NCBI GenBank assembly: GCA_964637115.1
Contig: CAZWVL010000004.1
Span: forward strand, 1 to 64,000
Length of the DNA: 64,000 bases
Direction of reading: 5' to 3'
From: an uncultured Methanosarcinales archaeon
GTDB lineage: Archaea > Nanobdellota > Nanobdellia > Woesearchaeales > ARS49
The position numbers were made by a program, and so were the translations under genes. Shown here piece after piece: positions 3,354-26,455 of this stretch. Every line of letters begins with the position of its first letter. The stretch's first letter is position 1. The notes under the pieces were generated by a model. That model had not been told where the DNA came from. It searched no databases and saw nothing but the letters and a program-made list of their open reading frames with translations.

Positions 3354-5482
3354 ATGAAGACCTTGTTGCTAAATATAAGCAAAAGTTGTCTGAGCAGCTT
3401 GAATTGCAGGCAAGCATGCCGAGTTCTCAGTTGTACAGCCGTGAGTATCAGATGTTTAGAAAGGAAATTCTGCCTCCTCACGCTACTGCTTTTGAAAAGA
3501 TATGCAATTTCTGCGGTAAATTGTTGAAGACTAAAGTAAAGCCTGAAAAATCTGCCCAAATGCAGGACGCGATTAATGCTTCGCATCTGCAGACTTCTCC
3601 CTCTGCCGTTATGGCTGCGAGTTTCATACTTCCGATTGTTTTCCTGATAATCGGGGTTTTCTTTTCTTTGCTCGTGCTGAACAGTATGTTCTTTGCCATG
3701 TTCAGTTTGCTGGTTGGCCTTGCCGGTATTTTCTTGTTGCAGAACGTGCCGTTTTTCCTGGCTAATCAATGGCGTATGAAAGCAAGCAATCAGATGGTTT
3801 TGTGTGTTTTTTACATCGTAACTTACATGCGGCACACGTCAAACTTGGAAAATGCTATTGAATTCGCTTCTGAGCATCTTGCGCCACCTTTGAGTCTTGA
3901 TTTAAGAAAAGTCATATGGGATGTTGAGAGTGGAAAGTACGAGAACATCAAGGATTCTTTGGAAGTTTATCTTAACGGCTGGCGCCAGTATAATATGGAA
4001 TTTGTTGAATCACTGCATTTGGTCGAGAGTTCTTTGTATGAAACTTCAAATGACCGCCGTTTGAGCCTGTTGGACAAGGCTTTGGATGTCATTCTTGATG
4101 AAACGTATGAGAAGATGTTGCATTACGCGCAGAATTTGAAAGGTCCAATTACAATGCTGCACATGCTTGGTGTTATCTTGCCTATTTTGGGCCTTGTCAT
4201 CTTGCCTCTTGTTGTCAGCTTTATGGAGGGTGTCAAGTGGTATCACATTTCTGCTTTGTACAACATTGCCTTGCCAATTATTGTTTACATTATGGGCAAA
4301 CAAATTTTGGCAAAGAGGCCGACTGGTTATGGTGATACTGATGTTGCCGAGATTAATCCCGCATTGAAAAAATATCGTAATGTGATCTTCAAGATTGCAG
4401 GTGTTGAGCTTACCATTCACCCTGCTTTTATTGGCATTGTTATAGGAATTATTTTTTCTCTAATCGCGCTTTCTCCTTTAATTATGCATTTGTTTAATCC
4501 AGATTTTGATTTCCAGATTGGAGGTTTTGACTTTTTGGGCTACAAGGAAAGCACGCTGTTTGAAGGTGTAGAAATTGGCCCGTTTGGTCTTGGCGCGAGC
4601 ATTATTTCTCTTTTCTTTCCATTAGCTTTGGCTTTTGGCTTTGGCCTTTTCTTCAGATTGCGAAGCCAGAACGTGATTAAGATTAGGGAAGAAGCAAAGA
4701 AACTGGAGGACGAGTTTGCTTCTGCGTTGTTCCAGCTGGGCAACAGGTTGGGTGATGGCTTGCCTGCAGAGATTGCTTTCCAGAAAGTTGCTGACGTGAT
4801 GGAGGATACCATTTCTGGCCGGTTTTTCAAACTTGTTTCTATAAATATCAGCAAGATGGGTATGAGCGTGAAGGAGGCTATCTTTAATCCGACTAGTGGC
4901 GCGATTGCTTCCTATCCAAGCGCGATTATTCAGTCTTCGATGAAAGTGTTGATTGAGAGCGTTAAGAAAGGCCCGATTATTGCAGCCCAGGCATTGCTTA
5001 ATGTTGCGCGTTACATTAAGGAAATTCACAAGGTGAACGAGCGTTTGAAGGATTTGATGGCCGACATCATTTCTGATATGAAATCGCAGATTTCCTTCTT
5101 GACTCCTGCTATCTCGGGCATTGTTATTGGTATTACTTCCATGATTACGTTTATTTTGGGCAGTTTATCAAAAAACATTACTAATTTGGGAGCCGAGCAG
5201 GCCGGCTCGCAGATTGGAACTTTGGCAAACTTTTTTGGTGATGGCGTTCCTACTTATTATTTCCAGGCTGTTGTCGGAATTTATGTTTTCCAGATAGTTT
5301 ACATCTTGACCATTCTTTCTAATGGAATTGAGAATGGCGCCGACAAACTGGAAGAAAGGTATTTGCTTGGCCAGAATTTGATTAGGAGCGTGGTGTTGTA
5401 CTGCCTAATTTCGCTTGTCGTGATGATTGTCTTCAACATGATTGCTTTGAATATTGTTGGCGTTGTGCCATTGATAGAATAA
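3350..5482 (+). CDS. T2SS F-domain membrane platform protein (TadC/FlaJ-like)
   Basis: Multiple TM segments alternating with cytoplasmic helical domains (LGDGLPAEIAF, LSLDLRKVIW); ATGA overlap with the ATPase. Confidence 0.85.
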   Translation: MNEDLVAKYKQKLSEQLELQASMPSSQLYSREYQMFRKEILPPHATAFEKICNFCGKLLKTKVKPEKSAQMQDAINASHLQTSPSAVMAASFILPIVFLIIGVFFSLLVLNSMFFAMFSLLVGLAGIFLLQNVPFFLANQWRMKASNQMVLCVFYIVTYMRHTSNLENAIEFASEHLAPPLSLDLRKVIWDVESGKYENIKDSLEVYLNGWRQYNMEFVESLHLVESSLYETSNDRRLSLLDKALDVILDETYEKMLHYAQNLKGPITMLHMLGVILPILGLVILPLVVSFMEGVKWYHISALYNIALPIIVYIMGKQILAKRPTGYGDTDVAEINPALKKYRNVIFKIAGVELTIHPAFIGIVIGIIFSLIALSPLIMHLFNPDFDFQIGGFDFLGYKESTLFEGVEIGPFGLGASIISLFFPLALAFGFGLFFRLRSQNVIKIREEAKKLEDEFASALFQLGNRLGDGLPAEIAFQKVADVMEDTISGRFFKLVSINISKMGMSVKEAIFNPTSGAIASYPSAIIQSSMKVLIESVKKGPIIAAQALLNVARYIKEIHKVNERLKDLMADIISDMKSQISFLTPAISGIVIGITSMITFILGSLSKNITNLGAEQAGSQIGTLANFFGDGVPTYYFQAVVGIYVFQIVYILTILSNGIENGADKLEERYLLGQNLIRSVVLYCLISLVVMIVFNMIALNIVGVVPLIE

Positions 5483-5488
5483 GAAAAA

Positions 5489-5562
5489 TGGGGGTGGCCA
5501 GATTTGAACTGGCGATTCTACCGTCTTCAGCGGTATGTTCTCCCAGGCTAAACTACACCCCC
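5489..5562 (-). tRNA. trnF: tRNA-Phe (GAA)
   Basis: Reverse complement folds as a cloverleaf: acceptor GGGGGTG/CACCCCC+A, D stem GTTT/GAAC, anticodon arm TACCG-CTGAAGA-CGGTA, T arm GCCAG-TTCAAAT-CTGGC; CCA not encoded; TTTTTAAA box about 25 nt upstream. Confidence 0.97.
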
Positions 5563-5598
5563 GGGTAATATAAGAACAAAAGAAGCGCTTTAAAAATC

Positions 5599-5886
5599 TT
5601 ACTGAACAATCTCTAATCTTCCAAACTTTCCCGTGCCTAATTGCTTTTCTCCTCTGAATTCTGAAACATAGCCGTTTATGATGTGCACTTTCATTCCTGC
5701 TTTTACTAAGTCGCATTGTTCGTTCCAGAGTGTTAAAGTGATTTCTCCTGATGCGTCTTTTGCTTTTGCGTTCGCGACTTTTCCTGATTTACCGAATTTG
5801 TCAAATGCACGAGGCTCCTGCATGCTGATTACTTCCACGACTATGTCGATTTTTCCTTGTCCTGCTTGTAAGTCTTTGATTTCCAT
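5599..5886 (-). CDS. ssb: Single OB-fold single-stranded DNA-binding protein
   Basis: OB-fold signature DASGEITLTLWNEQ...INGYVSEFRGEKQL; ATG at 5886 after GGAGATG. Confidence 0.85.
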   Translation of the reverse strand: MEIKDLQAGQGKIDIVVEVISMQEPRAFDKFGKSGKVANAKAKDASGEITLTLWNEQCDLVKAGMKVHIINGYVSEFRGEKQLGTGKFGRLEIVQ

Positions 5887-7506: not shown

Positions 7507-8667
7507 ATGGATACTATGAATAAGACATTGTTAGGAATTTTAAGTTTGTTATTTGTGTTTTTGGTCGCGTGTGCTCCTGCACAGGAAATGAAAGCAGAGC
7601 CAAAGGTGGAAGAAAAGAAAGCGGTTGCACCGGCTGAAGTAACATTTGGCTGGATTGGCGCTTTAACTGGTGGTGCGGCTACGATTGGAGAACCAATCAG
7701 GAATGCTGTGGTATTAGCGGTTGAAGAAATTAATGCAAATAATGTAATTCCAGGCAAGAAATTGAATATCATCTACGAAGATGATGCCTGTGATGCGAAG
7801 AATAGCGCAACAGCCGTGCAGAAGTTATCAAATGTTGATAAGGTCACAGCAATTATCGGTCCGATGTGTTCTGGTGCAACACTTGCTGATGCACCAATTA
7901 TAGAGGAAGCAAAGATGTTGACGGTTTCTTATTCCGCAACAAACCCATCAATTAAAGATGCCGGCGACTACTTATTTAGAAACGTTCCTTCTGATAATGG
8001 CCAGGGCGTTCAGGCCGCAGCACTTATTAATAAGCTCGGCTCAAAGAAGATCGCCATTATCCACATCCAGAATGACTGGGGTGTTGGTTTGCTGAAAGTG
8101 TTTAAGTCCGAAGCTGAAAAACTTGGTCTTAAAATTGTCGCGACTGAAACGTACAGTCCTGACGCCACCGACTTCAAAACTCAGTTGGCAAAGATAAAGG
8201 CTGCAAAGCCTGAAACCTTGTACATGTTGTCTCATCCTACAGATGCCGGTATTGTTCTTAAGCAAGCGTCTGAAGCTGGCTTGAAAATACAGATTATTGG
8301 TGCAGATGGATCAAAGGACGACGCAGTAATTTCAGCCGCCGGTGCTGCTGCAGAGGGATTTATTGTAACTCTGCCTGGAGTGCCAAAGTCGTCTGAGCTT
8401 GACAAGTTTGCAACTGCGTACAAGGCTAAGTATGGCAAAGAATTCAGTGCATACACGCCTGAAGCTTACGACGTTGCGTACATTCTTGCCAAGGCTTGTG
8501 CTGCAACTGATTGCACTTCAACTGCTATGAAGGACTACTTGTACAAGATGGGACCGTACACGGGCGCATCTGGAACGTACGAGTTTGACCAGAATGGTGA
8601 AGTCGACAAGCCGTATGATTACTTTACGGTAAAAGACGGCAAGTGGGAAGCATATATTGCCTCCTGA
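7507..8667 (+). CDS. SBP1: branched-chain amino acid-type ABC substrate-binding lipoprotein (LivJ/K, Peripla_BP_6 fold)
   Basis: Lipobox LVAC; GWIGALTGG, AVEEINANN, EDDAC, GPMCSG, SYSAT, DFKTQLAKIK, AYDVA. Confidence 0.93.
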   Translation: MDTMNKTLLGILSLLFVFLVACAPAQEMKAEPKVEEKKAVAPAEVTFGWIGALTGGAATIGEPIRNAVVLAVEEINANNVIPGKKLNIIYEDDACDAKNSATAVQKLSNVDKVTAIIGPMCSGATLADAPIIEEAKMLTVSYSATNPSIKDAGDYLFRNVPSDNGQGVQAAALINKLGSKKIAIIHIQNDWGVGLLKVFKSEAEKLGLKIVATETYSPDATDFKTQLAKIKAAKPETLYMLSHPTDAGIVLKQASEAGLKIQIIGADGSKDDAVISAAGAAAEGFIVTLPGVPKSSELDKFATAYKAKYGKEFSAYTPEAYDVAYILAKACAATDCTSTAMKDYLYKMGPYTGASGTYEFDQNGEVDKPYDYFTVKDGKWEAYIAS

Positions 8668-19783: not shown

Positions 19784-19826
19784 AAAGAAAAGGTTTAAAT
19801 ATAAGCCATTGCATCGACGATGTAAT

Positions 19827-20738
19827 ATGAAAAGAAAAGTTGTCCGGCAGGGCGCGGCGACATTAATGGTCTCCCTGCCAAGCAAGTGGGCGCATAAAGT
19901 GCACCTGAAGAAAGGCGATGAGATTGACATAGAGGAATCCAACGGCAATCTAGTGATTTCCAAGGAAAAAGTTGAGACCAAAAAGCAGACCACTATCAAC
20001 ATTTCCAGTTATTCAGAATCTTCTATCCGTGTGGCGCTGTGGAACACGTACCGCGCAGGTTACAGCCGCATTGTTGTTAATTTTTCTGATGAAAAACAGT
20101 ACAAAATTGTGAAGGACGTAATTAAAAATTACGTCGTTGGCTTTGATGTTACTAAGAAAGAGAAGAATTCGTGCATTGTTGAAAATATCACAGAGCCCGC
20201 AGAAGAACAATTTGACGTTCTTTTCAGGAAAATCCTGTATAATATCTCTTTGTTAATCAACATTACTGAAGAACGGCTGAGAAATAAGCAAACGAGCGAC
20301 AATTATAATGAAATTGTACTGAAAATCCACCAATATGACAACTTTTGTCGTCGGGTGATTGCGAAAAGGAATTTGTCCGGCAGTGAGGCATATTTGTTAT
20401 GGTCATTCCTCACGTTGCTAATTCACGGACAGAGAGAACTGTACCATTTAAACAGGTACTTAGATAAGAACAAGGTAAAATTCACGAATTTTGAATTTTA
20501 TGGCAAATTGAGAAAAATATTTGATTTATTGAACGAAGGATACGTCAAAAAAGACTTATCAAAATTTGAAAAGATTCATGAATTGGAAAAAGATATCCTA
20601 TATCAGGAATTTTATGGTTTGATTCAGAAAAATCAGAAAGAGAATATAGTGCTTTATCACATTGCTGCTGCAATAAGACAGTTTTATTTGTCAGTAAGTC
20701 CTTTAGTGGGTCTATTATTGGAATCCAATAAGTCGTAG
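19827..20738 (+). CDS. AbrB/SpoVT-domain, PhoU-like transcriptional regulator (copy 1)
   Basis: N-terminal AbrB motif RKVVRQGAATLMVSLPSKW..KGDEIDIEE followed by helical PhoU-like repeats (YDNFCRRVI). Confidence 0.8.
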   Translation: MKRKVVRQGAATLMVSLPSKWAHKVHLKKGDEIDIEESNGNLVISKEKVETKKQTTINISSYSESSIRVALWNTYRAGYSRIVVNFSDEKQYKIVKDVIKNYVVGFDVTKKEKNSCIVENITEPAEEQFDVLFRKILYNISLLINITEERLRNKQTSDNYNEIVLKIHQYDNFCRRVIAKRNLSGSEAYLLWSFLTLLIHGQRELYHLNRYLDKNKVKFTNFEFYGKLRKIFDLLNEGYVKKDLSKFEKIHELEKDILYQEFYGLIQKNQKENIVLYHIAAAIRQFYLSVSPLVGLLLESNKS

Positions 20739-22444
20739 TGAATTCTTCCTTCATTGTCAGTTATGTGATACAATGCGATTGCCCTGTTAATCAGGTTCCT
20801 TTTCGTTCCTGAAAGGAACTCTGAATAGCCTGATATTTCTTGGCCGTTTTTATTTGTTTTAGAATAATTCAGACTGTTTGCTTTTTTGCGTGCTTCAAAT
20901 AATTCTTCTTTGTCACAGAAATATTCTGCACTGACATCAGCAAGTGTTTTATTGGTTCCAAGTTGATTTTTTAAATACAATATTGCATAGAAACGGTATC
21001 TGAATTCATCAGGAGTGGTTTTATCATTAAATTTATTCACAAAATCATTCGGCACTAAAACTGAATTTGTGCGCATTTCTTTGTACTCATCTTGTTTTAA
21101 TTTTTCGTCTTCCATGAGAGCGCTGCGCATTATTGAATAACATAAGCGCTTGCTCATTCTCCTCATATCCATTGTATTGTCAAGTGGGTCTGCAAATATT
21201 CCTTTTTTCGCCTCTTTTAACGGATTTTCTTGTTCCTTGATTTGCTTGAAATAGGGAATAAACTGTTCTGCAATGTCAGAATTTTGTAAAAGATAGTCTA
21301 ATCCGCTGTCAGGATATATTCCTGTCCTTAAGGTTTCGTGTATTGCAGGTTCTTTGAATCGGTCTGCTTTTTCTTGAATCTGCATTAATTTAAGGCCGCC
21401 AAAAATACCGGTTATAATACCAGCAATAGTTGTAAAACCTACTGCATATTTCCTGATTTTTTGCCACGGAACAATGCGCCTGTTGACAGCATCTTCAAAG
21501 TCTCCTTCGAAATTAAAATGTGCCATATTATCAATATACTTCGGATGTTGGACACTGAGGCAATTGCGGAGCATTTTTCTGTATTGTCGTGGAACAAGGG
21601 CGAGGCGTTTTTCCAGAGCAGCGTCGTGTTCATCAAGATTGACATTTGCTATTTGCTTGCCATCCTGTTTAAGTGTTGCTTTGAGTATCTTTCCATCGAC
21701 GAAAATTGGTGTTCCATCTTCATCAGCTACCAATTCAATTTTAAATAGCGGTTCTCCGGTTAAAGCATAGAACATTGTTGCACCTAATGCATAAAACTCG
21801 CTTTGTATTGTTGCCTTGGCTTCTTTTTTGTCAAGGAGTGCATTGAGTATGTTTGGCGCAGTAAATTGTGTTCCACCTCTGGTCGGCAGGAATGATTCTG
21901 TAATGTCTCCGATTTTACCTGCTGTCTGCAGGTCTGAAAGCTTGGCGCTCTCATCACGTATTCCAATGAGTATATTTGATGGCTTGATGTCTCTGTGCAA
22001 AAGGCCTTCGCGCCAGTGTAAATGTTTCAAGCCTGCTGCAACTTGAGAGAATATGTATTTGAACTTCTCTGGTTCGTTTATTTTACCAAATCGAACACGT
22101 TGCTCTAACGAAATGGCTTCATAATATTCTTCAACTGTGATTGTCTTGTCGCCCGTCTTGAACGCATCATTAATCTCTACAATGTTCGGATGCTTGACTT
22201 TGTTCAGTGCTAGGACTTCGCGTTCATCCAGGTCACCTTTTGAGCGGTTAATGGCTGTCGTGATTGAATTCTCATCAATGTGCTCTTTGGGAATCTTGAC
22301 CACACGGACCTTTTCCACGCTGCCGTGCTTGTAAAGTGCTTCGTAAACGTCTCTGGTGTGGCCTTCTCCAAGTTTGCGAATTATCGTATACCCGTTTTCC
22401 TTGAGTAATTGCTCTACTTTAGAGTCGAGTTTAGTTGCTGCCAT
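20684..22444 (-). CDS. Membrane-anchored Hanks-type Ser/Thr protein kinase with C-terminal extracytoplasmic domain
   Basis: LGEGHTRDV, VVKIP, HPNIV, LHRDIKPSNILI, DLQ in place of DFG, GGTQFTAP; TM AVGFTTIAGIITGIFGGL. Confidence 0.85.
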   Translation of the reverse strand: MAATKLDSKVEQLLKENGYTIIRKLGEGHTRDVYEALYKHGSVEKVRVVKIPKEHIDENSITTAINRSKGDLDEREVLALNKVKHPNIVEINDAFKTGDKTITVEEYYEAISLEQRVRFGKINEPEKFKYIFSQVAAGLKHLHWREGLLHRDIKPSNILIGIRDESAKLSDLQTAGKIGDITESFLPTRGGTQFTAPNILNALLDKKEAKATIQSEFYALGATMFYALTGEPLFKIELVADEDGTPIFVDGKILKATLKQDGKQIANVNLDEHDAALEKRLALVPRQYRKMLRNCLSVQHPKYIDNMAHFNFEGDFEDAVNRRIVPWQKIRKYAVGFTTIAGIITGIFGGLKLMQIQEKADRFKEPAIHETLRTGIYPDSGLDYLLQNSDIAEQFIPYFKQIKEQENPLKEAKKGIFADPLDNTMDMRRMSKRLCYSIMRSALMEDEKLKQDEYKEMRTNSVLVPNDFVNKFNDKTTPDEFRYRFYAILYLKNQLGTNKTLADVSAEYFCDKEELFEARKKANSLNYSKTNKNGQEISGYSEFLSGTKRNLINRAIALYHITDNEGRIHYDLLDSNNRPTKGLTDK

Positions 22445-22673: not shown

Positions 22674-22817
22674 ATGAAACAGTTCATAATCACCAAGAAG
22701 ATTGCCAAGCACGGCTCTCAGGCTATTATTGTAGTTCCGAGAGTTCTTGAATCTTATCTAAAGCCAAAGACGTTGGTAAAATTGACGATTGACGTGTTGG
22801 AGGAGCCAGATGAATAA
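22674..22817 (+). CDS. 47-aa AbrB-like/DUF2080-like microprotein (absent from ORF track)
   Basis: MKQFIITKKIAKHGSQAIIVVPRVLESYLKPKTLVKLTIDVLEEPDE; swapped-hairpin pattern KxxKxGxxxxIxVP; overlaps the next start. Confidence 0.7.
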   Translation: MKQFIITKKIAKHGSQAIIVVPRVLESYLKPKTLVKLTIDVLEEPDE

Positions 22818-23334
22818 TCCTCTAACTATTGACTTCAAACTGCAAAGAGAACATTTTGGTCAACTAATTGATATTGACAGAATTGTTTTCCGGCAAGAAC
22901 CTCATCCTAATCAGGTTGCAATAGCAGAGAGGCGACCTGAATTGTACACGGTTATCAGACGCGGAGACCATGTTGTTGGCTATGGTTTAGTTTTGCCATT
23001 GCGAAAAGCTGCGTTAACGGCTTTGAAAGAAGGAAAAATATGGGAAGATGAACTAAACATCGGCTGTCTAACCGACCGGTTGCCAGCTGGCTTTTACATT
23101 TCTTCAATTGCTGCAATACAAGATGCTTCTGAACGAGAGCGCGCAATGATTGTTGGAAGCACAGTCAGCCCTCCATTCCGCACACCTTTTGAAACAATTG
23201 CAATTCCTATTTCAGAAGCTGGTAACAGAATTTGTAGAAATCTGCTTCGTATGATTCCTGTACGAGCACGCACCGAAGTGAAAGGAATCGATGGCTATAC
23301 GCCGACAACATACCAGCGTGGAGGAGCCAAATGA
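22810..23334 (+). CDS. GNAT-fold acetyltransferase-like protein
   Basis: VVGYGLVLPL, FYISSIAA, AIPISEAGNRIC patterns; acetyl-CoA motif A looks degenerate; start MNNPL at 22810 after GGAGG. Confidence 0.5.
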   Translation: MNNPLTIDFKLQREHFGQLIDIDRIVFRQEPHPNQVAIAERRPELYTVIRRGDHVVGYGLVLPLRKAALTALKEGKIWEDELNIGCLTDRLPAGFYISSIAAIQDASERERAMIVGSTVSPPFRTPFETIAIPISEAGNRICRNLLRMIPVRARTEVKGIDGYTPTTYQRGGAK

Positions 23335-25526
23335 AACCGCTTGAACTCCAGCTGAAAGAAATTCTTGGTGTTAAGGAATACAACCGTTTTGCAGATACTG
23401 TGCTTTTCCCTGCTATCGAGCAGCTTGCTGAGAGCGGAAAGCTGAGCAATTCTGATCTTGCCAAATTGGCTAAATTGACAAAGACCTATGGAGCAGGAAT
23501 TTTTGACGTTGCCGCTTCAGACGTGGGAGAGGCAACCAAGCATAATCTGTCAGACGGCTTCTCAATTATTGCAAAATACAAGTTGAATGAGGATTTGGAA
23601 TTCAATCTGTTCGTGAAGAAATTCAGCGACAAAAAAAGCTTTGACCGGGGTGTTCTCATACAGGAAGAAATTGCGCAGCATTTGAGAAACACTGATTTGG
23701 CAGGCGTCGTTCCAGAACAGCTATATAAAAACCGGGGCAAGCGCATTGTTGTTATGCCGCTGGTCGAGGCAAAATCACTCAATGCCGTCTTGCCTGAATC
23801 GAAAGACAAGGAAGAATTGCTTAGAAAAACAATAACAGAATATTTGAAAATAACTGATCATATTGGAGCTAAAAAAGTCTTTGTGCCTCCAAAAAGAAAC
23901 GCCCTCGGAAAACTCTGGTATGATGATTTCAAACTGCCTTCATTGCAGAATTTCGACAGATTTTTTGCAAAGGGCTTTGGTGCTGATGAAAAAATTACAG
24001 AAAGCTACAAGCAGCACATAGGCAGCCGTTTGAACGGAAATACAGGCGATTTCATCCACGGTGATTTGCACCCAGGCAACATTCTGATTAATGACAAGAC
24101 CCATTTCATAGACTGGGAGCTGGCCGCAAATGGTTTTACTGAATTTGACCTTTACAAATTGTTCACAAAATCCAATGTGTCTGATGACCTCGAAGACCGT
24201 TTGCTTGCATATACTGTTATGACTAAGGAAAAACTGCGTGCAAAGCGCGAAAACAGGCAGCCAGCCAGCGCTGACACGCACAGATTGCTATTTGAAGCAT
24301 CTAAGACACGATACAGGTTAAATCAGATTACTCAGGACTTGTTGACTGCTGAACGCTACAACAAGAATGCGCAAAAAGATGTAAAACGCCACGACAAACT
24401 TGAAAAAATGGCATTAACTGCCTATAATATTGCCCTGCGCCATATAGAAAAAGCTGAAAGTGAGGGAATTCTCAGTGCTGATTTCAGGCTGACAATTGAA
24501 GATTTTGTACAAAAGAACAAGCCATATAACCGTATTAATAATGTTGAATTCGCTCAATTATTGAGCGTATATAATCCTCACACAACTCTTTCACAGGATA
24601 ATCTTGTTTCGCACGGCACTGAAATAGGAGCGCCCGTTGACAAAGAATCCAAGCAAAAGAATTTAGAAATTATAAGGAAGAGTTTGCACAAGAAGGATTG
24701 GGGCAAGATTGCAAAACTTGGAATAGCTGCAGCAGTGTTGCTCTGTAGTGCAAGTTATGGTGGACGGAAGTATTTGGAGAGTGAACTTGCAAGAATAAAA
24801 CTCGAGGAAAAGGCTAAACAGGAAGACGCCGATAGTTGGTTTAGAAATGATTTCTGCAAAATTTACGAGACGCGTATTGAGGCTGAGCTGCATGGTGGAA
24901 AGATTCGATGGGCTTATACAGAAGCTGACAAGAGACCGTTGGGAAAAGTGCGGTTAATCGAAGATCGTGAGTTGATCAAAAATACCTGTGACAAGTATAA
25001 TCTTGACTTACAATTTACCAGGAGAATGTATAAGATAAATGCTGCTTTTGCTAACGTTGAAAATAATAAAATGAGTGATAGAGGCATAAATTTCCTTGAT
25101 CCATATAGATTCGTATATACCAAAGGTTCTGAGGCTGATCATTATGATCCAGTAATCAATCTTGAATTTGGTGCAAAAAGATTATCGCGATTGTTTGATA
25201 AGTATAAAGTGGATAGAAATATGATTAAAAATGGGCATCATGTCAATAATGGCAACGATGCAATAAAGAATAATGATTCTTCTTTACAACCATTGATTCG
25301 GGCATTAAAACAGTTTTATACCTTTCAAAAGAATTATACCGAAGATGAGGAAGATAAAAGATATGAAGAGCAGCTAAGCGATGATAAAAAATATAATAAA
25401 AAGCTTGCACGTGGCGTACGTGAAATCATATACGCCTTGTTGACAAATGGTCCCCAATCTGATTTTAATGGTGATATTGTATACTTGGAACAATCAGGAA
25501 TTCCTGACAATTTCATGCGAGAGTAA
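23331..25526 (+). CDS. APH/choline-kinase-family phosphotransferase fused via one TM helix to a lysozyme/SLT-like domain
   Basis: Brenner motif FIHGDLHPGNILI and FIDWE; TM IAKLGIAAAVLLCSASYG; YDPVINLEFGAKRLSRLFDKY resembles the SLT motif. Confidence 0.75.
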   Translation: MKPLELQLKEILGVKEYNRFADTVLFPAIEQLAESGKLSNSDLAKLAKLTKTYGAGIFDVAASDVGEATKHNLSDGFSIIAKYKLNEDLEFNLFVKKFSDKKSFDRGVLIQEEIAQHLRNTDLAGVVPEQLYKNRGKRIVVMPLVEAKSLNAVLPESKDKEELLRKTITEYLKITDHIGAKKVFVPPKRNALGKLWYDDFKLPSLQNFDRFFAKGFGADEKITESYKQHIGSRLNGNTGDFIHGDLHPGNILINDKTHFIDWELAANGFTEFDLYKLFTKSNVSDDLEDRLLAYTVMTKEKLRAKRENRQPASADTHRLLFEASKTRYRLNQITQDLLTAERYNKNAQKDVKRHDKLEKMALTAYNIALRHIEKAESEGILSADFRLTIEDFVQKNKPYNRINNVEFAQLLSVYNPHTTLSQDNLVSHGTEIGAPVDKESKQKNLEIIRKSLHKKDWGKIAKLGIAAAVLLCSASYGGRKYLESELARIKLEEKAKQEDADSWFRNDFCKIYETRIEAELHGGKIRWAYTEADKRPLGKVRLIEDRELIKNTCDKYNLDLQFTRRMYKINAAFANVENNKMSDRGINFLDPYRFVYTKGSEADHYDPVINLEFGAKRLSRLFDKYKVDRNMIKNGHHVNNGNDAIKNNDSSLQPLIRALKQFYTFQKNYTEDEEDKRYEEQLSDDKKYNKKLARGVREIIYALLTNGPQSDFNGDIVYLEQSGIPDNFMRE

Positions 25527-26415
25527 GCGTTTGCCCCATCATTCTTACTATTAATTCTGTCATCTCCCGCAAAAAGCGCAGGACATATGTCTCCTTTGCC
25601 GATTTAGTGCTGTTTAGTTTTCTATCGATTTCAAAAGCAATGCTGTCACGCTCTTTTGCGAGTGCAGCTGCTGCTTCATACGAGAATTCATAGAATAATC
25701 CTTCAAATTTCTTGAAAAGGCGCTGTATTCGGTCATAGAGGGCAATTACCGATGATTCTAATACAACCTTGTTTTTGGTGATATAGCCGGTCAGCAGCTT
25801 GTATTCGTCGCCAAGCTGCTCAAGAAGCATAACAACAGCATACATGACTGGAGTCTTCGAATATTCCGGATACCCATATTTGTTTAGAATACGAAAACAA
25901 TGGTCCGTTACCCTGTTTATGTTGGCTTCCATATCCTCAAGATAGGCGAGGTCTGTTTCTTTTCGTTTTAAGGTTTGAAGGCTTTCGTCAGCTACGGCGC
26001 TTATCATGAAAAATACCCGCCGAAGTATTGGGTCGAATGCGTTTTCAGACACACCCGAAATATCTTTGATGATAAGATAATTTTTGCCTTGCTGGATTAC
26101 TTCCATTCCTATCATTTCCCTGACGCGCTGCTGAATGAGTCTTGCCTTGTTTAACGAGTCAAACTTCACTTCCAGTTCATCAACGCCTTCCAAGTATTTT
26201 GCAGCAACAATTCTTTTGAGCAAATTGTCAAGCTTGCTTAGATCAATGGTCTCCCGCATATGCTTGGGAACGGTTGGCGGGGTCATTACAAGCGTCGTAT
26301 CTTTCTCTTCCAGTTCTATTTCATCACCCGCTTTCAGATTAAGCTTCTTTGTCCACTTGGCAGGCAGTGAAATAGTCAGTGTTGCCGCTCCCTGCTTGAT
26401 TATCTTGCGTCGCAT
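25513..26415 (-). CDS. AbrB/SpoVT-domain, PhoU-like transcriptional regulator (copy 2)
   Basis: MRRKIIKQGAATLTISLPAKW..AGDEIELEE; EANINRVTDHCFRIL and LEQLGDEY PhoU-like motifs; start at 26415. Confidence 0.82.
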   Translation of the reverse strand: MRRKIIKQGAATLTISLPAKWTKKLNLKAGDEIELEEKDTTLVMTPPTVPKHMRETIDLSKLDNLLKRIVAAKYLEGVDELEVKFDSLNKARLIQQRVREMIGMEVIQQGKNYLIIKDISGVSENAFDPILRRVFFMISAVADESLQTLKRKETDLAYLEDMEANINRVTDHCFRILNKYGYPEYSKTPVMYAVVMLLEQLGDEYKLLTGYITKNKVVLESSVIALYDRIQRLFKKFEGLFYEFSYEAAAALAKERDSIAFEIDRKLNSTKSAKETYVLRFLREMTELIVRMMGQTLTLA

Positions 26416-26455
26416 ATCGTCGATAGTCGCTTTCAAGTATATAAATTTTGCCTTT

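Follow-up and report, generated by a model that had tools for sequence, protein, structure and literature searches.

Serine/threonine kinases of the PASTA type (PknB, PrkC and StkP of Gram-positive bacteria) combine a cytoplasmic kinase, one transmembrane helix and a wall-derived extracellular module, which binds muropeptides but leaves them uncut. The chi-lectins and CHRK1, the tobacco chitinase-related receptor-like kinase, have a glycoside-hydrolase fold from which the catalytic Glu has been lost; in CHRK1 it forms the ectodomain of a single-pass receptor kinase. In Caulobacter the protein SpmX reuses a lysozyme-like domain to localise and activate the kinase DivJ. Here we describe P0001, a receptor-like kinase encoded in a 64,000-nucleotide (nt) stretch of archaeal DNA that we call the window throughout (positions 1 to 64,000 of contig CAZWVL010000004.1, assembly GCA_964637115.1; GTDB order Woesearchaeales), whose predicted outer domain comes from a peptidoglycan-cleaving enzyme with a rebuilt active site. 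P0001 follows the layout logic of the PASTA kinases; its sensor fold is lysozyme-like rather than PASTA, its kinase, as in most members of its family, has the APH fold, and its host has no wall of its own, so that any wall material sensed would be foreign. CHRK1 is evolutionarily unrelated, with a glycoside hydrolase family 18 (GH18) TIM barrel in place of a GH23 lysozyme-like domain and a eukaryotic receptor-like kinase. SpmX offers a likeness in that a lysozyme-superfamily domain serves a non-lytic role in kinase signalling, as we propose for P0001, but its domain is GH24-like and keeps the Glu, the protein is separate from the kinase and the bacterium has its own wall.

The outer domain is, on good evidence, homologous to the family-1 lytic transglycosylases (PF01464/GH23, the SLT domain; Slt70, MltC, MltD, MltE and MltF) and is predicted to have their fold; unlike them, it is joined through a membrane helix to a predicted cytoplasmic kinase, in an archaeon without peptidoglycan genes. 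Large extracellular lytic-transglycosylase proteins have been reported from Woesearchaeota and Pacearchaeota, with a proposed role in attachment to bacterial walls (Castelle et al. 2021, PMC8204110). Those proteins are giant, carry no kinase and are presented as enzymes with a possible part in binding and degrading the bacterial cell wall, and neither kinase fusions nor Glu-less variants are described there. P0001 comes from the same archaeal group and is predicted to place a domain of the same bacterial-type superfamily at the cell surface, and both point to interaction with bacterial walls; its genome, by contrast, holds no canonical SLT domain, only the Glu-less variant joined to a kinase. 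A literature search on kinases with lytic transglycosylases in DPANN archaea, on AbrB with kinases in archaea and on pseudoenzyme lytic transglycosylases found no account of the architecture of P0001. The principle is known from the PASTA kinases and CHRK1; the combination of a Glu-less SLT sensor with a rebuilt cleft, an APH or Hanks kinase and an AbrB-type partner in DPANN archaea appears to be undescribed in the literature searched. It is an open question how DPANN archaea recognise the cells on which they depend and respond to them: wall-cutting enzymes are known, no sensor of host material is known to have been described, and P0001 is a concrete candidate for one.

A prior reading of this DNA from the letters and translations (the sequence-only reading) had proposed an APH/choline-kinase-family enzyme built like a receptor, with a kinase, a helical linker, a transmembrane helix and an SLT-like tail. 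That layout is supported (Table 1), and the fusion recurs at full length. All the strings quoted in support of it are located in the translation of 23331-25526: the kinase motifs HGDLHPGN and IDWE, the hydrophobic segment IAKLGIAAAVLLCSASYGG (residues 460-478) and, in the tail, LIKNTCDKYNLDLQFTRRMYKINAAF (residues 548-573), RGINFLDP (584-591), YDPVINLEFGAKRLSRLFDKY (605-625) and ALKQFY (658-663). A word-indexed search of 5.8 billion proteins returned six full-length relatives of 708-730 aa and 38-66% identity that align end to end, tail included. An exhaustive search with a tail profile, followed by local hidden Markov models (HMMs) of both kinase types, gave about 20 further representatives that share the layout; 22 kinases carry the P0001-type tail by this route. 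Because full-length relatives sit on separate contigs and samples, in NCBI, JGI, ENA and Logan assemblies, with gene order conserved, an assembly chimera, which the sequence-only reading had named among the things that would undo it, is ruled out.

Several lines of evidence identify the tail. First, a profile of residues 480-731 built from 7 relatives (A2) was scored against 1.84 billion representative proteins with E values up to 0.001 and gave 63 matches; 37 of the 57 that were scanned carry PF01464 independently (best E 2e-63), and the matches outside the family are ordinary bacterial and phage SLT proteins. Second, profile-profile alignment by hhalign relates A2 to 26 canonical SLT domains with 97.8% probability (E 7.1e-13, 120 columns) and the 22 family tails to canonical SLT with 98.4% (E 5.6e-15); the canonical set was drawn from the tail-profile matches, which introduces a mild circularity, the proteins being independently SLT by Pfam. 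Third, comparison of an AlphaFold2 (AF2) model of the tail with 48,161 chains by VIA-align places lysozyme-like folds at ranks 1-19, led by MltD (Z 5.8, root-mean-square deviation (rmsd) 4.8, 130 residues aligned), MltF (5.3), T7 gp16 (5.3) and LtgA (5.2). In an ESM Atlas shape search the top three rows are SLT clusters (TM-scores of the top rows 0.31-0.56), 19 of 30 language-model neighbours of the tail are SLT, and the weak list from Foldseek against PDB is filled by MltF, MltC, MltE, LtgA and goose-type lysozyme. A search of PDB sequences with the tail profile gave no match at E values up to 10. Taken with the profile statistics, the structural results, each weak but all in agreement, make it well supported that the tail is a true but diverged SLT/GH23 homologue, as the sequence-only reading had supposed from the way the tail tracks the SLT signature. 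Because Pfam SLT at its curated threshold does not see the family, annotation says only 'phosphotransferase' or 'hypothetical'. Nothing in the canonical SLT set corresponds to the C-terminal extension beyond the SLT-derived core.

Homologous as it is, the tail has lost the residues on which lytic transglycosylases depend and gained others. We compared 28 family tails with 42 canonical SLT domain instances, all aligned to the tail HMM. Where 39 of 42 canonical domains have the catalytic Glu, 26 of the 28 family tails have Asn (Asn570 in P0001), which bears out the claim that the catalytic Glu is lacking. The Ser that follows it in 40 of 42 canonical domains is replaced by Arg, Ala or Lys. As to the detail of the motif, the sequence-only reading had 'ES' replaced by 'IN/AA' and let ALKQFY track the ALAAYN of the signature; the replacement itself stands, but since the alignments place the Glu of 'ES' on Asn570 and the Ser on Ala571, 'IN/AA' was off by one residue, and ALKQFY aligns to a late ETxxYV helix, not to AYNAG. 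AYNAG itself has no counterpart in the family, where the region reads VDR.... The Met-Gln of GLMQ (40 of 42) has become Asn-(Leu/Ile), with Asn at the Met position in 18 of 28 tails, so that the motif reads G-(V/I/L)-N-(L/I). Two further positions carry residues that are new and invariant: Asp590 stands in all 28 tails where 32 of 42 canonical domains have Met, and Arg617 in all 28 where 28 of 42 have the Tyr of GxxYL. The framework is common to both groups: Gly585 (the G of GLMQ), the following Pro591, Asp606-Pro607, Asn610 and Gly614 (DPxxN(I/L)xxG) and Leu618.

This rebuilt site is conserved across sequences that are only 20-30% identical, and a maximum-likelihood tree separates the family tails from canonical SLT by a branch with 100/100 support, with two subgroups inside the family. 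Because the substituted positions are conserved to residues of their own, the cleft is, as judged from these alignments, rebuilt into a different conserved site and not a drifted or decayed relic, its new function being binding or possibly new chemistry. In Slt70, MltE and related enzymes replacement of the catalytic Glu abolishes activity, and the fold matches include structures of E-to-Q mutants (4hjy and 6fc4); with the GLMQ and AYNAG substrate motifs lost too, it is highly improbable that the tail is still an enzyme that cleaves or modifies glycans through new residues (for example, Asp590 as acid/base) and so couples remodelling of the envelope or of a host wall to the kinase. What speaks for such an enzyme is that Asn570, Asp590 and Arg617 are conserved as strictly as catalytic residues usually are, and that extracellular lytic transglycosylase domains are known from DPANN archaea of this group (PMC8204110). 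The pattern of conservation bears as well on the idea that the tail has no ligand and is a structural or oligomerisation module that ties the kinase into a complex at the cell surface or a dimer. Such a module would suit the long stalk helix, the Gly/Ala-rich membrane helix, of a type often found in dimers, and the existence of membrane-anchored tail copies without a kinase (P0036 and P0044); conservation is concentrated, however, at the substrate-cleft positions of canonical SLT and not at a helical interface, and we find this reading scarcely credible.

Between kinase and tail, a single hydrophobic window stands out in every one of the 22 family kinases, always in the same place, with a mean Kyte-Doolittle hydropathy of 1.3-2.1. 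In P0001 a Lys/Arg-rich stretch lies directly N-terminal of it; in P0001 and six close relatives the 15 residues before the segment include 5-8 Lys/Arg against 0-2 Asp/Glu, with charges in balance over the 15 that follow. Across all rows scanned, 2-8 Lys/Arg lie upstream, and with few exceptions the 26 proteins scanned show a positive-inside bias by hydropathy and charge counts. The Lys/Arg excess before the segment and the charge balance after it fit an N-in/C-out orientation of the helix, and by the positive-inside rule the kinase is probably cytoplasmic and the tail outside. In the AF2 model a stalk helix of 40 residues follows the membrane segment, with conserved F508 and G523 near it in P0001, and the stalk motif is kept by both kinase classes found in the family, including the members fused to Hanks-type kinases.

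The kinase domain exceeds the cut-off of Pfam APH (PF01636) with 42.7 bits against 23.2 (E 7.6e-11). Its core has Lys96 (in FVKKF), assigned as the ATP-binding Lys by position only, together with His243-Gly-Asp245...Asn250 in HGDLHPGN and Asp261 in IDWE; among 18 family members G244, D245 and D261 never vary and K96, H243 and N250 almost never do. HGDLHPGN and IDWE are thus intact, as the sequence-only reading had it, and with catalytic residues invariant or nearly so the APH-fold domain should be active. The helical region that follows, whether kinase C-lobe or linker, contains a conserved NPH(T/S)TxSQ(E/D)NLVS motif.

What the kinase phosphorylates is best approached through the tail. In other genomes the P0001-type Asn-variant tail is fused to a Hanks-type Pkinase domain (P0019, P0023 and P0025), and on the tail tree these fusions occupy three separate positions, of which one belongs to P0001's own subgroup. 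APH-fold and Hanks kinases are thus exchangeable within one module, and since a Hanks protein kinase can stand where the APH domain does, with the rest of the module unchanged, the exchange argues that the APH-fold domain of P0001 phosphorylates protein. The sequence-only reading had taken APH enzymes to be small-molecule kinases, which is true in general; here the Hanks replacement argues otherwise. It remains conceivable, if improbable, that the domain is a small-molecule kinase and that anchor and tail only position the enzyme at the envelope, with no protein phosphorylation and no signalling to a regulator. Pfam APH and Choline_kinase matches fit this, as do NCBIfam matches to methylthioribose kinase, thiamine kinase and macrolide phosphotransferase, all far under their cut-offs. 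The top NCBIfam match, however, is the YihE/SrkA-type APH-fold protein kinase (PRK11768; E 9.7e-07, also far under cut-off); the Hanks-fused members keep the same tail, the convergent regulator and the small upstream open reading frame (ORF); and the role of a soluble enzyme leaves the conserved transmembrane helix, stalk and ectodomain unexplained. YihE/SrkA is like P0001 in showing that an APH fold is able to phosphorylate proteins; it differs in being soluble, without a transmembrane helix or an ectodomain. Weak PDB profile matches of the kinase domain, among them 1zyl (E 0.024), mix protein and small-molecule kinases.

A convergent AbrB-type regulator of about 300 aa adjoins every family kinase examined, in both kinase classes. 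The kinase-regulator order recurs in L005 (kinase 66% identical), L006 and L007 (44%), L002 (36%), L008 (28%), the Hanks-type locus L009 (P0023) and the P0019 contig. This pairing in every locus read makes the two genes a candidate pathway from kinase to transcription, in archaea without classical two-component systems at the locus. Past the regulator, the window has LIV-type genes in one operon, for binding proteins, permeases and ATPases. Five loci have a LIV-type operon at this place; in L009 the operon encodes phosphoenolpyruvate (PEP)-utilising enzymes, and on the P0019 contig unrelated genes follow. On this comparison the constant core is the kinase and the regulator, with the small ORF in most loci, whereas the adjoining, putative target genes vary.

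As for the ligand, the architecture could be the same while the cleft senses a non-glycan ligand such as an amino acid, a peptide or a charged small molecule, the SLT fold serving as a scaffold. An invariant acid/base pair, Asp590 and Arg617, in place of the canonical Met and Tyr would suit such a ligand, and so would the loss of the Gln of GLMQ, the missing AYNAG and the place of the module beside amino-acid binding proteins and transporters in five loci. We think it unlikely, with the framework of the glycan cleft kept (Gly585, Pro591, Asp606-Pro607, Asn610 and Gly614); moreover, the tail is constant while the downstream operon varies, so that a ligand tied to one transporter fits badly.

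We therefore favour, with moderate confidence, a receptor-like kinase that binds foreign glycan without cutting it and signals through the AbrB-type regulator to an uptake operon. The remodelled SLT-derived domain, held outside the cell on its stalk, would bind the ligand without cleavage; the ligand would most probably be a glycan of the peptidoglycan or chitin type made by another organism, favoured on two counts: the tail has the fold and the framework residues of a glycan cleft, and the genome is without wall-synthesis genes. The sequence-only reading had likewise supposed the sensing of bacterial cell wall or other beta-1,4 glycans. Binding would be transmitted through stalk and membrane helix to the cytoplasmic kinase, which would act as a protein kinase on the convergent regulator, and the regulator would then set the expression of the adjacent LIV-type binding-protein and ATP-binding cassette (ABC) uptake operon.

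A number of observations weigh against this account. The Pfam SLT match stays under its cut-off, with 14.4 bits against 21.3 (E 0.029) over residues 599-630 and profile positions 57-88 only, and is likewise sub-threshold in the whole-genome scan. The AF2 model of the tail was built on 7 sequences only (predicted local distance difference test (pLDDT) 76.5, predicted TM-score (pTM) 0.80). Foldseek against PDB returned no E value below 0.5 for it, so that the fold assignment rests on VIA-align, the Atlas search and the sequence profiles; the VIA-align Z scores lie at 4-5.8, and even at Z 5.8 helical folds can match by arrangement alone. The predicted transmembrane segment of P0001 is only moderately hydrophobic (mean 1.48) and was called from hydropathy and charge counts rather than by a dedicated predictor. 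The new invariant residues are charged (Asp and Arg) and would suit a non-glycan ligand or new catalytic chemistry just as well, and APH-fold enzymes mostly phosphorylate small molecules. Finally, the link between kinase and regulator is drawn from gene order only, and the downstream operons differ among loci, which means that the output is not fixed.

On a broader view, foreign-glycan sensing of this kind might belong to a modular DPANN system for sensing host or prey, in which a dead transglycosylase ectodomain would detect bacterial wall and swappable APH and Hanks kinases would phosphorylate a dedicated AbrB-type regulator, switching nutrient-uptake and metabolic operons on contact. We regard this as a doubtful extension; if true, it would give archaea their own equivalent of two-component or PASTA-kinase signalling.

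Table 1. Positions of P0001, its domains and motifs, and its neighbours in the window (blank cells, no entry)
Feature	Position (nt)	Strand	Residues	Remarks
Whole kinase gene P0001	23331..25526	+	731 aa	Candidate single-pass membrane kinase; ATG start
APH-fold kinase core	23610..24203	+	94-291	Pfam APH
HGDLHPGN motif	24057-24080		243-250
IDWE motif	24108-24119		260-263
Helical region, kinase C-lobe or linker	24204..24707	+	292-459	Conserved
NPH(T/S)TxSQ(E/D)NLVS motif	24573-24611			Within the helical region
Predicted transmembrane segment	24708..24764	+	460-478	Gly/Ala-rich; best 19-residue Kyte-Doolittle window
Helical stalk after membrane	24771..24890	+	481-520	AF2 helix 2-41 of tail; alignments
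SLT/GH23-derived core	24954..25337	+	~542-669	Profile and fold searches, language-model features
Position of catalytic Glu	25038-25040		570
Position of next Ser			571
Position of Met-Gln of GLMQ			587-588
Position of canonical Met, Asp in family	25098-25100		590
Position of Tyr of GxxYL	25179-25181		617
C-terminal tail extension	25338..25523	+	670-731	VRxIVYxxLxGGP ... PxxF; conserved
Convergent AbrB/SpoVT-type regulator	25513..26436	-	307 aa	Pfam MazE_antitoxin/AbrB fold at N-terminus, E 6.1e-09
47-aa ORF	22674..22817	+	47 aa	Upstream of kinase, same direction
181-aa ORF	22789..23334	+	181 aa	Translationally coupled to kinase start; no family match
Neighbouring Hanks kinase	20684-22444	-		Tail = residues 356-586, window 20687-21379 (-)

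The window encodes a second kinase next to P0001, of the Hanks type, and the sequence-only reading had proposed that two kinase classes here carry the same kind of inactivated ectodomain. At the level of homology this holds in other genomes, through the three Hanks fusions described above, one of which (P0025) has a kinase domain close to that of the neighbour in the window (E 1.2e-70). Within the window what is shared is a predicted fold: an AF2 model of the neighbour's tail (pLDDT 66.6) is matched by VIA-align to MltF with Z 10.3 (rmsd 3.5, 149 aligned), Cj0843c (9.4), LtgA (9.4) and MltD (9.0), and the top 25 rows are nearly all lysozyme-like, a better match than that of the P0001 tail. By sequence, neither BLASTP nor hhalign (0.2-0.5%) relates this tail to the P0001 tail or to canonical SLT, and we rejected the candidate that both tails of the window are one family by sequence. 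Foldseek of the model against PDB gave nothing significant, and the tail profile searched against PDB sequences gave a chance row only. The word 'inactivated' is borne out for the APH-type protein only, because the neighbour's tail carries an invariant Glu445 (tail residue 90) at the expected spacing: it lies where a helix ends C-terminally, and a long 'YL' helix follows 35 residues on, which equals the spacing of Asn570 in P0001. As modelled, this tail may keep the catalytic Glu and be an active or differently modified version. NCBIfam PknB_PASTA matches the catalytic domain of the neighbour only.

Upstream of P0001, a small ORF precedes the kinase in all loci read except L008, with 58-78 aa in related loci and 47 aa in the window. 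The 47-aa protein is 80-94% identical in L002, L003, L005 and L006, while the kinases are 36-66% identical; it looks AbrB-like by eye, with no Pfam match. The 181-aa ORF, whose stop is overlapped by the ATG of P0001 (ATGA), is found in L005 (81% identity) and absent from L002, L006 and L008, which makes it an optional part of the operon.

At its other end, the kinase gene is overlapped by the 3′ end of the regulator gene over 14 nt (25513-25526). An overlap of this kind is kept elsewhere, at 14 nt in L005 and in L006/L007 and at 7 nt in L008, and may couple expression of kinase and regulator through transcriptional interference or antisense effects. Pfam recognises no more of the regulator than its AbrB/MazE-type N-terminus, and a search of PDB sequences with the regulator profile gave nothing useful.

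The genome of the window has 1.27 Mb and is 98% complete; it contains no FtsW/RodA, no penicillin-binding protein (PBP) transpeptidase and no canonical SLT. A methanogen origin, suggested by the label 'uncultured Methanosarcinales archaeon' that the assembly and two related loci (L002 and L003) bear, is rejected for this genome, given that no mcrA was found in it and that the family member P0023 is deposited as 'Nanoarchaeota archaeon'; the Methanosarcinales labels are probably unreliable. The tail profile finds only the single copy in its own genome. With a whole-protein profile of the APH type, matches were obtained in 7 of 301 sampled genomes of the phylum, scattered over several families; the module is rare and patchy. 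Among the wider tail matches, P0036 (274 aa) and P0044 (294 aa) are short proteins without a kinase in which an N-terminal Met and a short cytoplasmic stretch are followed by a transmembrane segment and then the Asn-variant tail. P0035 (3176 aa, matched in 5 stretches) is a cadherin/Ig-repeat protein and was not used.

The AbrB-type regulators of about 300 aa fall into two subfamilies. In L009 one regulator of each subfamily, at 4703-5701 (+) and 7663-8568 (-), flanks the single Hanks kinase, and in the window one regulator stands beside each of the two kinases, the convergent partner of P0001 and another at 19809-20738 (+).

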